DNA from: Promethearchaeota archaeon
GTDB taxonomy: Archaea; Asgardarchaeota; Lokiarchaeia; Sigyniarchaeales; SOKP01
Assembly (NCBI GenBank): GCA_016839555.1
Contig: JAEOUA010000010.1
Coordinates: 64,001 to 128,000 of the forward strand
Reading direction: 5' to 3'
DNA: 64,000 bases
The notes under the pieces were generated by a model. The model searched no databases, had not been told where the DNA came from, and saw nothing but the letters and a program-made list of their open reading frames with translations. This document shows, in pieces, positions 16,322 through 40,856 of the stretch. Both the position numbers and the translations under genes were made by a program. The number at the start of each line of letters is the position of its first letter. Positions within the stretch are counted from its first letter, which is position 1.

Positions 16322-16963
16322 TTAGAAAGAGATAATTTCTTTCTCTTCCAATTTGTTAAGAATTTGGAGGATTTCAATTTTGCTTTTGTTGAATATTCGA
16401 GAAATATCTAACGGAGAATTTTTTCCATTACATTTTAATGCGATTAAATAATCAAGATCGTTAATAATACCCATGGAATGTATTTTTCTCAATATATTTT
16501 TAATTACAGATAATTTAGGGTAGTCTTCCGCTATTTTACCTCCCATAGTTATAATTTCTATATCATTTTTAAAAGTTTTAAATTTGCTTTTTTCGCTGGT
16601 CGTTCGAAATAATTTTATATCTGAATCATGTTTTTTCCAAAATCTATTTCCAATTTTATACGCAACGCTCTTTATTTTTTCAACATTATCTCCCGCATCA
16701 GAAATTGAACATATTAATACCCTCGATTGCTGGTGATAAAAAATAGTTATAATGGAACTTTCCGCTTCAATTATTCTAGTTTTTTCAAATTTTGTTTTTC
16801 CTTTTGCCATAGCTTTATGGATTGAGTCTATTGTTTTATTTATGGCATTGAAGAAATCTGGAAATACTTCTTTTTCTATTTTCTTATTTTGAAATTCTTT
16901 AAATGTGGTATCTAATATTGCAATACCATTATCAGCATCAATTAAATAGACTTTATAAATCAA
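16322..16963 (-). CDS. Longin-like domain plus C-terminal winged-helix protein
   Basis: MIYKVYLIDADNGIAI longin start, FFNAINK helix, RFWKKH...F..F; C-terminal CNGKNSPLDIS...ILNKLEEKEII wHTH. Confidence 0.6.
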   Translation of the reverse strand: MIYKVYLIDADNGIAILDTTFKEFQNKKIEKEVFPDFFNAINKTIDSIHKAMAKGKTKFEKTRIIEAESSIITIFYHQQSRVLICSISDAGDNVEKIKSVAYKIGNRFWKKHDSDIKLFRTTSEKSKFKTFKNDIEIITMGGKIAEDYPKLSVIKNILRKIHSMGIINDLDYLIALKCNGKNSPLDISRIFNKSKIEILQILNKLEEKEIISF

Positions 16964-17143: not shown

Positions 17144-18553
17144 TCAAATATAAGTATTTACTAATTCCACCAAGTTATCGGATAAATCAGGTAAATTTTG
17201 TTCTATTTTATCAATACTTGTATCTATTTCCAAAAGCAAGAGTAAATAAAGAGTATATTTCTGAACCTTAATTCTTTTAAAAACCATCTTTTTTGAATCA
17301 TTTATAGATAGACTTACGATATAATCCTTTTTTAACAATTTAAACTCCTTAAAAGTTTTATAGAGCGTTTGGAAATGAGGAGCACTAATTTCAAAGACTT
17401 TCTCTTGCGTATCATCATGGGAATAATTGGATATGATGATACCATTTTCATTTAATAATAATATAGATTCTATTGAAGTTTTTTTTGCAAATTGTTTGAG
17501 TTGCTGGCGAAATAGTTCCCGATTGGGGCTTAATTGTCCCAACCCAAAAGAATACGCTACCATTAAGGACCATTGAGTGAAAACTGAAGTCTTAAATATC
17601 TTTACAAAAAATCTATCTGATAAATCTTTAATTTTTTCATACAAATACTGATAATGTTGGTTTGTTTCTTCAGAATTTTGTAAATCAGGATCATATTTAT
17701 TTAAACATACCACAATAGGAGGAAATTCATCAAAATCATTTAGAGATCTGATAACATTTCTATATAATGCTAATGATTGATCAAACCGTTTTTGGTCTTG
17801 AATATCTATGAAAAAAAATAATAGATCTATATTATATAAATAAAGTTTACTCTGTTCAAAATATTTATCTAAATACTTCTGCTGTCCACCTAGATCCCAA
17901 ATCATTATTTCGCTGTTCTTTTGAGAAATAAGTTCTTCCTCGCTTCTATTTACTCCCTTAGTTGGCATTGATTTAATTATTTCAGAGTACTTTTTTTTTA
18001 CTCCATATAAAAAACTGGTCTTACCGGCTTTGTCCAAACCTACAAATACGATTTTAATTTTTCGTTTTAAAGAAAAGGGATCTTTTAATTCAATAGTGAA
18101 TTCATTTAATTCTTCTTTTAACGCATCGATATATTGTTGATATTTTATTTTATCTAATGTTTCTTGAATCTTGGTTGCAGTCCTATCTATTATGACCCGT
18201 AAGTATTTCATATTTTCATATAAAAAATTCTTATTATCTTCATCTACAAGGATTGTTATAGTGGCTGCTTTCGCATTCCCTCGTGCTTTAGGATCGGGTA
18301 TTAAAAAGAAATAGGTTAGACCTGTTAACTTGAGATCAGGGAAAGGGATTACTCCAAAATAATTTATTCCATTTATTTCAGAAGAGTCTTGATATGTTGA
18401 ATCGCCCATTAATAGAGAAATTGTTTTCATAGAAATCAATAATCCTGCTCGCTTTTCTAATGATTTTGGCCAATATATTACTGGAATAGGACCATCACTG
18501 CCAAATTCGCTTAATACTATTGATTTAATTACCTGTCTATCAGATTTTTCCAT
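17144..18553 (-). CDS. FLCN/NPRL2-like longin + Rag/Arf-like GTPase + roadblock fusion (Arg-finger loop present)
   Basis: G1 GLDKAGKTS, G2 PTKG, G3 WDLGGQ, G4 NKYD, G5 KTSVF; Rag-like C-terminal roadblock; N-terminal SEF..GP and DPKARG; start probably MEKS (18553), track ORF begins 18601. Confidence 0.85.
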   Translation of the reverse strand: MEKSDRQVIKSIVLSEFGSDGPIPVIYWPKSLEKRAGLLISMKTISLLMGDSTYQDSSEINGINYFGVIPFPDLKLTGLTYFFLIPDPKARGNAKAATITILVDEDNKNFLYENMKYLRVIIDRTATKIQETLDKIKYQQYIDALKEELNEFTIELKDPFSLKRKIKIVFVGLDKAGKTSFLYGVKKKYSEIIKSMPTKGVNRSEEELISQKNSEIMIWDLGGQQKYLDKYFEQSKLYLYNIDLLFFFIDIQDQKRFDQSLALYRNVIRSLNDFDEFPPIVVCLNKYDPDLQNSEETNQHYQYLYEKIKDLSDRFFVKIFKTSVFTQWSLMVAYSFGLGQLSPNRELFRQQLKQFAKKTSIESILLLNENGIIISNYSHDDTQEKVFEISAPHFQTLYKTFKEFKLLKKDYIVSLSINDSKKMVFKRIKVQKYTLYLLLLLEIDTSIDKIEQNLPDLSDNLVELVNTYI

Positions 18554-18755
18554 AGTGATATTTTTTTGAAATGAGTTCTTACATAATAAAAAAAAAATCA
18601 TTATTTTTAATTATATTGGTAAAAAATATGGGATTTCTGAATAAACCATAAATGTAGCTTTTACGATAAAATTACTTAAATTAATTTATTTGGGTTAGAG
18701 ATGTTTTTACCGCTTAATAGTATATCTATACCCTATCTTTGTTTATAAATACTTA

Positions 18756-25974: not shown

Positions 25975-27009
25975 TTATTGATTATTTTTCTTTAATAAGC
26001 GTTTTAATTGTTTATTAACAAAAGTACTAGCGATATGTATGATCCCGCTCTTGACTTTTGGATTAGAGAAAATAATTAGGATATTATCACTTAAATCTGC
26101 AGTATTATAATAAAGAGGTGCTAAATCTAACACACCTTCTGTTCCTCTGAGTGTTATCGAATGCAAAACACCAGCATTTAAACCATCAATAATATCTGTT
26201 CCAATCATGAATAAATTTTGTGCGATTGTGGCAAATAAGGAATCAGAAGCTCGATCAGAAATGGCAGATGCTAGGATTTTTCCATCATTATTTAAGATTG
26301 CAGATGCTTCTATATGTATATCTATATTTAATAATTCCTTCAATACTTCATTTAAATTTTCCGGTTTTAACTCTTTTTTACTTTTAACTTTTTCATATGA
26401 TTGTTCCTTATTAACTGTCAATTCAGGAGATGGTAACTTTTCTGATAAAAATGATAAAACTGTTTTCATATCCTTAGCTAGACGCTTTTGCCTATCTGGA
26501 GTGGCTGGTAAACATTCTTCCTTAGTTGATAATTCTTGCGTTTCATCGATTAAGTTTGATTTTGAGGGCTTTTTTATCTCTTTCTTATATGAAGGGGTTA
26601 AAAAAGAACCATCAAAAGGTATTGGGTCAATTTCCTTTAAATATTCTTTTTTATCATATTCCATCTCAATTGAATTAGACTCAAATGATGGTTCCTCATT
26701 TGTCGTTAACCCTTTATTTGGTATATCTTGAAGGTCTGATTTCTTTGGTTTTTGTTGAGACTTTGAATTCTTGCTTAGATTAGGGCCACTAAAGAATTTT
26801 AATTCTCCATATAAATCCATTTTTTGATTATTTTGGACATCTTGATCTTTTTTCTTATTTTTTGGCAAATTTTCTAGGGTATTATTTGCATTTCCATATT
26901 GAATTCGAACTCGTGGAGGTTCGGATGATACAGGGAGAACTGCGCCACATCTTCTACAAACCTTTGCATCATCTCCATTTGATGACCCACAATTACTGCA
27001 TATTCTCAT
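25975..27009 (-). CDS. Zinc ribbon + disordered linker + roadblock/LC7 protein
   Basis: CSNCG...CRRCG; long polar linker; LNEVLKELL..IEASAILNNDGKILAS roadblock. Confidence 0.8.
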   Translation of the reverse strand: MRICSNCGSSNGDDAKVCRRCGAVLPVSSEPPRVRIQYGNANNTLENLPKNKKKDQDVQNNQKMDLYGELKFFSGPNLSKNSKSQQKPKKSDLQDIPNKGLTTNEEPSFESNSIEMEYDKKEYLKEIDPIPFDGSFLTPSYKKEIKKPSKSNLIDETQELSTKEECLPATPDRQKRLAKDMKTVLSFLSEKLPSPELTVNKEQSYEKVKSKKELKPENLNEVLKELLNIDIHIEASAILNNDGKILASAISDRASDSLFATIAQNLFMIGTDIIDGLNAGVLHSITLRGTEGVLDLAPLYYNTADLSDNILIIFSNPKVKSGIIHIASTFVNKQLKRLLKKNNQ

Positions 27010-27215: not shown

Positions 27216-28154
27216 TTACCTAATAAATGATTCCAAAAAATTACTTAATATTACTACTGAATCATTATTATAGGTGGATTCCTTCTTTACAAAAAGTAGA
27301 TAATAAGGTGGATTAACCCTTATTTGGGAAAAGAAAAAATATCTATTATGTCGATATACAATAATTTTATCTTCTGGATTCTTTACAGAAAAACCTCTGG
27401 TCCCAACTAATAGATTAAATCGGTCATTTAAGCGAAGAAAATAAGGAGGAACTAAATTCATTAATTCTTCAATATTGTTATCTTCAAAAAAAGAACTGAC
27501 TATTAAGGAATTATTATCAATTAATACTGCCCCTTCACAGTTTTCTTTATAAGCAAATTGTTCTAATGTTCTATTTAATAACTCAGGTTTATCTATAAGT
27601 GTGAGGAAAATTTCAGACATTACTTGTATTAATCCAGAAATATCATATACAGAAGTCTTATAGAAATAGAGCCGTTTATAGTTAGATGCTTTCTTAATAT
27701 CTTCCTTTAAATTGATTATTAATTCCGAATATTCATTTAATGCACTTCTTTCCAACGCGGGATCGTACTTATGAAAGAATATATAAATTGGAGGATTGAT
27801 TTCTAATTCCTCAAATTTTTTGATAACATCATCAAGATAACTAAGAGCCTCTGGAATCCTTTTTTTATTTCTGATGTCTATACAAAAGATACAGATTTCT
27901 GTATTATCGAAATATTTACCAGGATTTTTAATATATGAGATACGATAGAGTTCTTGTCCACCAAGGTCCCACTCGCTTATGTTTCTTCCTAAGAAACTAA
28001 AAACCCTTCTCTGAGCCCCTCTAGTGGGAGTAATAGAAGATATTTTCGAAAATTCTCTTTGTAAAGCTAGTATAATAGAGCTTTTTCCTGCATTATCCAA
28101 TCCGGTGAAGAGAATCTTCTCAACCTCGATGTCCTCTTGTTTTAAATATTCCAT
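27216..28154 (-). CDS. Rag/Gtr-like small GTPase with C-terminal roadblock
   Basis: GLDNAGKSS, PTRG, WDLGGQ, HKYD, KTSVYD; L..TLEQFA...EGAVLIDNNSLIVSS roadblock. Confidence 0.88.
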   Translation of the reverse strand: MEYLKQEDIEVEKILFTGLDNAGKSSIILALQREFSKISSITPTRGAQRRVFSFLGRNISEWDLGGQELYRISYIKNPGKYFDNTEICIFCIDIRNKKRIPEALSYLDDVIKKFEELEINPPIYIFFHKYDPALERSALNEYSELIINLKEDIKKASNYKRLYFYKTSVYDISGLIQVMSEIFLTLIDKPELLNRTLEQFAYKENCEGAVLIDNNSLIVSSFFEDNNIEELMNLVPPYFLRLNDRFNLLVGTRGFSVKNPEDKIIVYRHNRYFFFSQIRVNPPYYLLFVKKESTYNNDSVVILSNFLESFIR

Positions 28155-37621: not shown

Positions 37622-39091
37622 ATGGAAAAATTATTTGAAACTTCAATTATTAAGGGGTTTGTTTTGTCCTACTCGCATACAGAAAAAGGACCAGAATTAA
37701 TATACACGTTTCCTTATTACAAAAAACAAGAAGCTAAGAGTAATGAAGATAGTAATATAAATGAAAGAAATGAAATAATCCTTACTCAGCAAGAGTTTAT
37801 GAAGATCACGATTAAAAATTTATCACTAGTCCTCACTGATGAAATTATTTCCTCTGAAGGTGAAGAAAAACCACAATATTTTTGCATTATTCCGTTTCCA
37901 GATTTCTTTCTTACGGCAATAACTTATTATCATTATATTAATGGAAATGTAATCGCTTTTTCCGTGCTTGTTCATGAGAATGATAGAAATTTTTTGTATA
38001 AAAATCATAATGGGATTAAGAAAATTATAATTGAGTTTTTTAAGAAATTTGATAAAATTCTGGCACAGAATTTTATATCACAAGAAGAAGCACACCCCTA
38101 TTTTGAAAACCTTTTGATACAATTAAAAGAATTAGAAAATCAGAAATTAGATCCAGCAATAGCCGATAGAAAAATGAAAATAATATTAGCTGGATTAGAC
38201 GATTCCGGAAAAACTAGCTTTCTTTTAACCGTTGATCGCAAATTTTCAAAATTAATGAATATAAAACCTACAGCTGGGGCTAAAGTACAATCTATCCAAG
38301 CTTTAGGGGCGACACTCTTTATCTGGGATCTTGGAGGTCAGAGAAAATACCTAGCTAAATATTTAACTAAATCAAGTATTTATTTATATGAATCTGATTT
38401 AATCTTTTATTTTATTGATATTAAAAATAGAGAAAGGTTTGATGAAAGCCTTGATTATTTAAGGAGAATTCATAAAATACTGTATAAAGAGTTAAACCAA
38501 GACACTCCTATAGTCTATATTTTTTCTAAAGGAGATATTGATATAATAGACACAAGGGAAATAAAACAAAATATTAAATATCTCAAATTCAAGATCAAAG
38601 ATATTATAAATAAAAAAAAATTTAGAACTCATGTCACCAGTATCTTCGAAATTACAACTGTTCTACGAGCTTTTTCTGAAGGAATAAAGAAATTAAGTTT
38701 TAACCGAAAATTGATAAATTATAACTTAAAAAAATTCTCGAGAAAAATAAATGCCTATATTACTTTACTTTTGAGTAATGATGGATTAATTCTATCAAAT
38801 TATTATTCTACGCAAATAAAACCAAAAGAAATAATACAAGATGTACTAGAAATTACGGCTCCTCAATTCACTATTATATATAAAATATTTTATAAATTTA
38901 AAGCCCTTAATAAAGAACAGGCGATATTTGAAGTAGCAAATTCAATATTTCTTATCAAAAGAACTAAGATTTTAGGACAAGATATTTTTATATTATTCGT
39001 CCTTAACAATTTAAACAAACAAAATAAAATAAATATATTATTACCTGAGTTTTTAGATCGGATTAAAAGTTTACTTACCACATATATATAA
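37622..39091 (+). CDS. FLCN/NPRL2-like longin + Rag/Arf-like GTPase + roadblock fusion (Arg-finger loop absent)
   Basis: GLDDSGKTS, PTAG, WDLGGQ, SKGD, VTSIFE; shares YF.IIPFPD, NFLY.N, YLY..DL.F.FIDI and EI.AP.F with 17144-18601. Confidence 0.85.
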   Translation: MEKLFETSIIKGFVLSYSHTEKGPELIYTFPYYKKQEAKSNEDSNINERNEIILTQQEFMKITIKNLSLVLTDEIISSEGEEKPQYFCIIPFPDFFLTAITYYHYINGNVIAFSVLVHENDRNFLYKNHNGIKKIIIEFFKKFDKILAQNFISQEEAHPYFENLLIQLKELENQKLDPAIADRKMKIILAGLDDSGKTSFLLTVDRKFSKLMNIKPTAGAKVQSIQALGATLFIWDLGGQRKYLAKYLTKSSIYLYESDLIFYFIDIKNRERFDESLDYLRRIHKILYKELNQDTPIVYIFSKGDIDIIDTREIKQNIKYLKFKIKDIINKKKFRTHVTSIFEITTVLRAFSEGIKKLSFNRKLINYNLKKFSRKINAYITLLLSNDGLILSNYYSTQIKPKEIIQDVLEITAPQFTIIYKIFYKFKALNKEQAIFEVANSIFLIKRTKILGQDIFILFVLNNLNKQNKINILLPEFLDRIKSLLTTYI

Positions 39092-40178: not shown

Positions 40179-40856
40179 TTATGATTCTGTTAAGGAGATA
40201 GGCACCTTATCTTTAGGAGGTGCTTTTCCATCTCCATAAATCTGATACATAACGGCCCTTCTAGAGCATTCATAAAAACTCTCATAAATATTCATCTGCT
40301 TATCATAAAGAGCACAAGTATGAAATATCTTAGGATTCCATATAGAAAGATCATGATTGGAATTGTACCATAATTTTTCTTCCTTAAGGACTTTTTTGAA
40401 ATCCTCTGCTTTTATTGTCAAACTTAAATCTTGTTTATTCAACATAACAACTAGGGGAATCTCTTTAATCAGCTTATCATATGCTATTGTTTTTAATTCT
40501 TTTAGAAATTCAATGTTATCTTCAATACATTTTTGCTGAGAATCAACTACAAAAAGAATTCCATCTGTTTGCTCATAAACCCGCTTACGTAATTTTGAAT
40601 AGCTTTTTTGACCAGCAACGGTATATATCAAATAATAAACCTTATTTTGTTTTTTAGATTGAAAAAGTCCTTTATCATACAATAAGGTTGCGCCACTACT
40701 GCTTTCTATTTTTGTTAAATTTTCCGTAGGGACGATATTTTTATTCTCTTCTTTTGTTAATTTATATAAGGTGTCTAATATAGTAGTTTTTCCCGATGCG
40801 TACATTCCAAAATAGAGGATCTTTATGTAGATCTTATCCCCATCGATTTTTACCAT
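40179..40856 (-). CDS. MglA-like small GTPase
   Basis: KILYFG..ASGKTT, TLLYD, YTVAGQ, DGILFVVDS, NKQD. Confidence 0.85.
   Translation of the reverse strand: MVKIDGDKIYIKILYFGMYASGKTTILDTLYKLTKEENKNIVPTENLTKIESSSGATLLYDKGLFQSKKQNKVYYLIYTVAGQKSYSKLRKRVYEQTDGILFVVDSQQKCIEDNIEFLKELKTIAYDKLIKEIPLVVMLNKQDLSLTIKAEDFKKVLKEEKLWYNSNHDLSIWNPKIFHTCALYDKQMNIYESFYECSRRAVMYQIYGDGKAPPKDKVPISLTES

Follow-up and report, generated by a model that had tools for sequence, protein, structure and literature searches.

In eukaryotes, longin GAP domains of the kind considered here sit on proteins that are separate from the Rag switches and turn these switches off. The window analysed here, a stretch of 64,000 nucleotides from a contig of a Promethearchaeota archaeon, contains a gene (here, gene A) in which a longin with a candidate arginine finger, a Rag-like G domain and a roadblock are encoded in one chain. 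An earlier note on this DNA proposed that the protein joins an FLCN-type GAP domain, with its catalytic loop in cis, to a Rag-type substrate and could represent an ancestral single-chain form of the FLCN/GATOR1-Rag switch. The locus raises the question of whether gene A encodes a self-contained switch or one component of a larger assembly. The existence of the feature and its strong conservation were confirmed. Support for action in cis and for an ancestral role was lacking, and a two-protein pair is more likely than a self-contained ancestral switch.

The open reading frame of gene A, 17144-18601 (-), is intact and 485 codons can be read from it. Orthologs are approximately 470 aa in length and begin at the equivalent of Met17, so the start of the gene is likely to be Met17 at 18553 (Table 1). 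The architecture described in the earlier note, in which a longin, a complete G domain and a Rag-type roadblock tail follow one another in one chain, was confirmed; all of the quoted motifs are present and the domains are matched in Pfam and by fold. In Pfam, Folliculin (PF11704) was matched over aa 95-158 with E 1.1e-5 and 25.7 bits, above its cut-off of 23.3 bits, Gtr1_RagA over aa 183-404 with 85.3 bits, and Arf with 75.5 bits. Motifs G1 to G5 are all complete (GLDKAGKT, PT, DLGGQ, NKYD and TSVF), the longin is joined to the G domain by a short conserved linker (aa 173-180) and, in the alignment of close homologs, no switch-I Arg is found ahead of the Thr. The codon assigned to the putative finger was also correct; it encodes the Arg of the motif DPKARG, which is residue 107.

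Table 1. Features of the window related to gene A and its candidate partners or substrates
Feature	Position	Strand	Basis and remarks
Gene A: longin (GP, candidate Arg finger)-Rag-like G domain-roadblock	17144..18553	-	~469 aa from likely start Met17; open frame reaches 18601
FLCN/SMCR8/NPRL2-type longin, gene A aa 22-172	18086..18538	-	Pfam Folliculin above cut-off, structure model, fold comparison
GP motif G37-P38, GAP-type longin feature, gene A	18488..18493	-	Conservation; weak alignment to SMCR8 G68-P69
R107, candidate arginine finger, beta4-beta5 loop, gene A	18281..18283	-	Codon CGA; conservation; longin model
Rag-like G domain, gene A aa 180-353, G3 Gln240 kept	17543..18064	-	Pfam, motifs, fold
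C-terminal roadblock, gene A aa 358-485	17147..17530	-	Foldseek cover and secondary structure
Zinc ribbon-long linker-roadblock gene	25975..27009	-	Pfam; neighbourhood in relatives
Gene C: G domain-roadblock Rag-like GTPase; candidate substrate or partner	27216..28154	-	Pfam, sequence matches
Gene B: sister paralog of gene A, same three domains; GP kept, Arg loop absent, G4 = SKGD; candidate non-catalytic partner	37622..39091	+	Alignment, tree

The N-terminal domain was modelled as a longin, as had been anticipated. The longin alone gave a model with a pLDDT of 90.6 in which R107 is located between strands 4 and 5, and the model of the full-length protein (pLDDT 72, pTM 0.55) is uncertain in its domain packing. 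The best fold match was 8YQG, an Asgard longin dimer (VIA Z 18.4, rmsd 2.1, 139 aligned), and further matches were found to the FLCN-complex chain 8dhb_J (Z 13.6, rmsd 2.5, 131 aligned), Lst4 (Z 13.4), C9orf72 (12.9), GATOR1 (~12), SMCR8 (11.0) and DENND1A (10.5), with chain identities in the FLCN, C9orf72 and NPRL2 rows assigned from residue ranges. As the Z values of FLCN, Lst4 and C9orf72 lie within 1 of one another, this ranking places the modelled longin in the GAP-longin group and not specifically with FLCN. Of the earlier assignment to an FLCN/SMCR8-type longin, membership of the group is therefore upheld by fold and by the Pfam Folliculin match, whereas FLCN itself could not be set apart from Lst4 and C9orf72. 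In FLCN proper the longin is followed by a DENN module, while in protein A it is followed by the G domain and roadblock; as yeast Lst7 consists of a longin only (10.1101/2020.04.16.045708), the missing DENN weakens just the statement that protein A is an FLCN.

The complexes FLCN-FNIP2 (the RagC/D GAP), NPRL2-NPRL3 (of GATOR1) and SMCR8-C9orf72 have the longin fold in common with protein A (Z 12-13.6, rmsd 2.5-3.1 over 125-144 residues), together with the GP motif and an Arg between beta4 and beta5. Protein A differs from them in having no DENN, in being fused to a GTPase instead of separate from it, in its low identity (7-15%) and in that its dimer and GAP activity are predicted. The beta4-beta5 longin loop holds R164 of FLCN and R147 of SMCR8 (10.1101/2020.04.16.045708). 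In protein A, G37-P38 is found at the start of strand 2 and aligns weakly with SMCR8 G68-P69 (E 0.93). When the longin was compared with the PDB by sequence and by profile, just 8YQG and a weak match to the SMCR8 N-terminus were obtained, and never FLCN or NPRL2, so that the equivalence of R107 to R164 is based on the position of the loop and on the match in Pfam. On these grounds R107 is a candidate finger in the same loop as FLCN R164 and SMCR8 R147. The Arg is absent from 8YQG, the solved family member nearest in fold.

The remainder of protein A has the arrangement by which Rag/Gtr proteins are recognised, i.e. a G domain followed by a C-terminal roadblock, and was matched by fold to LokiRagO (8YL2) and RagA/C, with Foldseek covering about 300 columns across both domains. 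Eukaryotic RagA/B-RagC/D (Gtr1-Gtr2) and the Asgard proteins LokiRagO and LokiRagM (8ZLA), which share this arrangement, were the top fold and sequence matches. Protein A differs from all of these in its extra N-terminal longin and in its Arf-like G1 and G3, consistent with the Pfam Arf match. A literature search of incomplete coverage found no paper on 8YQG, 8YL2, 8ZLA or 'LokiRag'.

Both the GP motif and R107 are kept in all of the close homologs of protein A (120/120), R107 being one of 35 longin positions that are invariant in the same set. More distant relatives were represented by 140 rows from a 50%-identity library, from which the counts of the Arg were taken; alignments made up mostly of rows picked for having the Arg were left out. 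In this distant set, the Gly of the GP motif is kept in 96% and the Pro in 89% of the rows, and the finger was counted in 35/37 of the longins that are joined to a Rab-like G domain, in 14/16 GTPase-free proteins with a C-terminal longin and in only 11/28 of the longins joined to a Rag-like G domain. The rows with a Rag-like G domain form two clades, A with the RG finger and B without it. A quick version of the longin tree recovered these as sister clades (support: A 97, B 95, joint 81) with outgroups that carry the Arg. All A-type proteins examined keep the Arg, and four A-clade longins from rows without a G domain have lost it (one derived group, one of the rows being a fragment). In other Asgard families, longins with both GP and RG occur in proteins of ~380 aa that have no P-loop. 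The conservation expected of the Arg in Asgard homologs was thus borne out; however, as GP and RG longins also occur on GTPase-free and Rab-fused proteins, the finger is distributed more widely than the A-type fusion and is independent of a Rag domain in cis.

Several individual longin genes were recorded alongside these counts. The A ortholog of genome G039 (L081:1486-2847) keeps the longin Arg and has a degenerate G3 (WDYKPK) in which the catalytic Gln is lost, which suggests, from its sequence, a finger without a catalytic Gln of its own. Genome G000 has two more GP-like/RG longins on roadblock-free G domains, one of them Rab-like (C2:56298-57347 and C7:302260-303291), and these belong to the large longin-Rab family counted above (35/37 representatives with the finger). 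A closed genome of another Asgard family carries three GP/RG-type longin genes in a row with no GTPase fused (L094; G155:C1:639114-642299).

The distribution of the three-domain form was examined by searching 251 Asgard genomes with full-length protein A as the query (E 1e-35). Matches were obtained in 59 of the genomes, including 53 of the 54 in its own family and 4 of the 5 in the second family of the order, as well as one longin-less match in another family of the same class. No match was found at this threshold in the other 24 Asgard families, many of which are matched by the longin profile alone. With this query the three-domain form is confined to one order, which counts against an ancestral single-chain form. 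In the ESM Atlas, only Promethearchaeota clusters were returned, all scoring < 0.9.

The clade lacking the finger is represented in the window by gene B. The copies of B counted in the source family have kept GP and have no RG finger (30/30), with G4 reading S-K-x-D, and those examined in the second family of the order, including MK-D1, have also lost the G3 Gln (WDIPGK/S). Genes A and B are both present in 45/50 genomes of the source family; in about 30 of its genomes they lie within 20 kb of each other on a single contig, in divergent orientation, and in the closed genome G055 they are 80 kb apart. Linkage of the two genes was considered as specific evidence for a partnership and rejected, because unrelated metabolic neighbours keep the same order. 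Gene C and the zinc ribbon-roadblock gene are located between A and B in the window, on the strand of A. In G039 these two genes immediately precede A on its strand, with the zinc ribbon gene between C and A, and in MK-D1 gene C is ~1 kb from A. The C ortholog in MK-D1 (G106; L073:9932-10954) contains a stretch of 30 residues identical to LokiRagO (PDB 8YL2).

A complex of A and B with GTP and Mg was predicted with a score of 0.58 (best control 0.00), which is rated as weak support. Between runs, at least 89% of the contacts were shared, the partner pLDDT was at least 76, and no interface was given. Of the solved pairs 58/80 attained the mark for this score, as did 2/110 of the mismatched ones; at values of 0.60 or below these were only 7 solved pairs and both of the mismatches, a range in which a prediction is more often wrong than right. 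The score may mirror likeness to the solved Rag and FLCN-FNIP complexes and, since close cousins also reach the mark, it may fit an A-A homodimer too.

The explanation that we favour, for which the chances appear evenly balanced, is that protein A is the Arg-bearing half of a longin-dimer GAP that is borne by a Rag-like GTPase and acts between chains. The longin of A would pair with a second longin, most likely that of B, in the manner of SMCR8 (Arg and GP) with C9orf72 (GP only), and the roadblocks of A and B would associate in the way known from Rag dimers. The longin pair may then bring R107 to the G-domain active site of another chain or dimer, which could be A or one of the Rags encoded nearby, for example C, with the drifting G domain of B serving mainly as a scaffold or regulator. 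The fusion would in that case be a lineage-specific tether of a GAP to its substrate class and not the ancestor of FLCN-Rag. We infer the role of A as a catalytic half from two parallels, namely that eukaryotic longin GAPs act as pairs and that the C9orf72/SMCR8 split mirrors B/A. The longins of FLCN and FNIP2 both contact RagC (10.1101/2022.06.28.498039), the SMCR8 longin is inactive without C9orf72 (10.1101/2020.04.16.045708), and C9orf72 retains GP while the Arg is supplied by SMCR8 (PMC12290439). Support is also drawn from the retention of GP and RG across distant relatives, including other Asgard families, from a fold nearer to the GAP-longin group than to DENND1A (Z 12-13.6 vs 10.5), from the closest solved relative, 8YQG, being a longin dimer, from the missing switch-I Arg of A together with the remark in PMC10933270 on a possible need of the MK-D1 GTPases for GAPs, and from the co-occurrence of A with its Arg-less sister paralog B. 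Against this explanation, R107 is just one of the 35 longin positions invariant among close homologs, 8YQG is without the Arg and the A ortholog of G039 has the Arg without the G3 Gln. A more specific version, which is a doubtful possibility, is that A and B form an obligate heterodimer whose two chains combine a longin GAP pair with a Rag-like pair, both of them asymmetric (the longins being Arg-plus and Arg-minus, like those of SMCR8-C9orf72 or FLCN-FNIP), and that R107 switches off a Rag-like G domain.

Other arrangements were weighed against the same data. An A homodimer, in which the longins of both chains carry the Arg and together act on the G domain of the partner or on a separate GTPase (C, which is of the LokiRagO type, or a Rab-like protein) and B has a role of its own, would agree with the homodimeric longin of 8YQG, with the AF2 homodimers reported for longin-GTPases in PMC10933270 and with the position of C and the zinc ribbon-roadblock gene next to A in G039 and of C in MK-D1; it is unlikely, as it leaves unexplained why B retains GP and has lost the Arg across the order. 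It is also quite unlikely that the loop with the Arg has a structural role or is a binding site for a ligand or partner, with the longin serving as a scaffold, sensor or exchange-factor module devoid of GAP activity. The RG loop is kept in most proteins without a G domain and in many architectures, family members such as 8YQG have no Arg, and most longins are not GAPs (PMC12290439); on the other hand, an exposed-loop Arg together with GP, kept at ~20-30% identity, is the published GAP signature, and GTPase-free carriers of the finger can work in trans, as FLCN does.

Highly unlikely, in our assessment, is the reading of the original proposal in which a single chain acts in cis on the G domain that it carries and is the ancestral FLCN/GATOR1-Rag switch. 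The presence of finger and G domain in one chain with a short conserved linker, and the loss of the Arg within clade A being seen in rows that have no G domain, would be compatible with it. However, the need of eukaryotic longin GAPs for two longins, exemplified by the inactive lone longin of the SMCR8 system, counts against cis action by protein A, the domain packing of the monomer model is uncertain, and the finger is equally kept on longins that are GTPase-free or fused to Rab-like G domains. The ancestral part of the proposal is made less probable by the restriction of the fusion to one order among the 251 Asgard genomes, with a longin-less match elsewhere, and by the GTPase-free setting of GP and RG longins in other families.

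The earlier note had named the conserved catalytic loop in cis as its specific point, and in this it was partly anticipated. GTPases of MK-D1 fused between a longin and a roadblock (LGR, longin-GTPase-roadblock) have been described in PMC10933270, and Asgard FLCN/SMCR8-type longins with GP and an arginine finger, for which GAP activity was proposed, in PMC12290439. For Promethearchaeum syntrophicum MK-D1 the former lists WP_147663355.1 and WP_147663364.1 (Suppl. Fig. 6b). WP_147663355.1-LGR has the same architecture as A and shares its G5 stretch with the A ortholog in G106, a protein with 40% identity to A, and by this sequence agreement WP_147663355.1 is the MK-D1 ortholog of A; WP_147663364.1-LGR matches B in its G1 and G3 motifs. 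In the accessible part of PMC10933270, the longin is not classed as FLCN-type, the Arg is not mentioned and Arg-plus and Arg-minus paralogs are not contrasted. The Asgard longins of PMC12290439 have the same GP and Arg signature as A, and its main text contains no longin-GTPase fusion. FLCN-like and NPRL2-like proteins of Asgard archaea are also found in 10.1101/2020.10.19.343400. Both halves are thus already published, and within an incomplete coverage of the literature we found no paper that joins the FLCN-type longin, the Arg and the LGR fusion or describes the Arg-plus/Arg-minus pair.

Protein A connects the question posed in PMC12290439, whether ArfR or Rag GTPases partner the Asgard longins, with the remark in PMC10933270 that the longin-GTPases of MK-D1 may require GAPs. 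In a lineage that has been cultured, it points to A as a concrete enzyme, to R107 as the residue, to B as the partner and to A and C as candidate substrates. If the predicted GAP activity is true, archaea have longin GAP chemistry that acts on Rag-like switches, and the fused form would not thereby be ancestral to eukaryotes. If the A and B heterodimer is true, no working longin GAP-Rag module would have been known from archaea before it, and the layout seen in eukaryotes would have been reached here by an independent route; the cultured MK-D1 has the genes.

Some further genes were observed next to A and B. The gene at 16322-16963 (-), just downstream of A, has an N-terminus that on visual inspection resembles a longin and, at the C-terminus, a weak match to a winged helix (HTH_24, E 0.012), and its homologs remain near A in both families of the order. 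In most relatives, a gene of ~400-440 aa with a hydrophobic N-terminus is found just downstream of A on either strand (L062, L063, L064, L069 and L073); the homolog in the source genome sits elsewhere (C7:262095-263402). At 1 kb past B, the gene at 40179-40856 (-) encodes a small GTPase that is MglA-like by eye, and a similar fragment adjoins A in G055.
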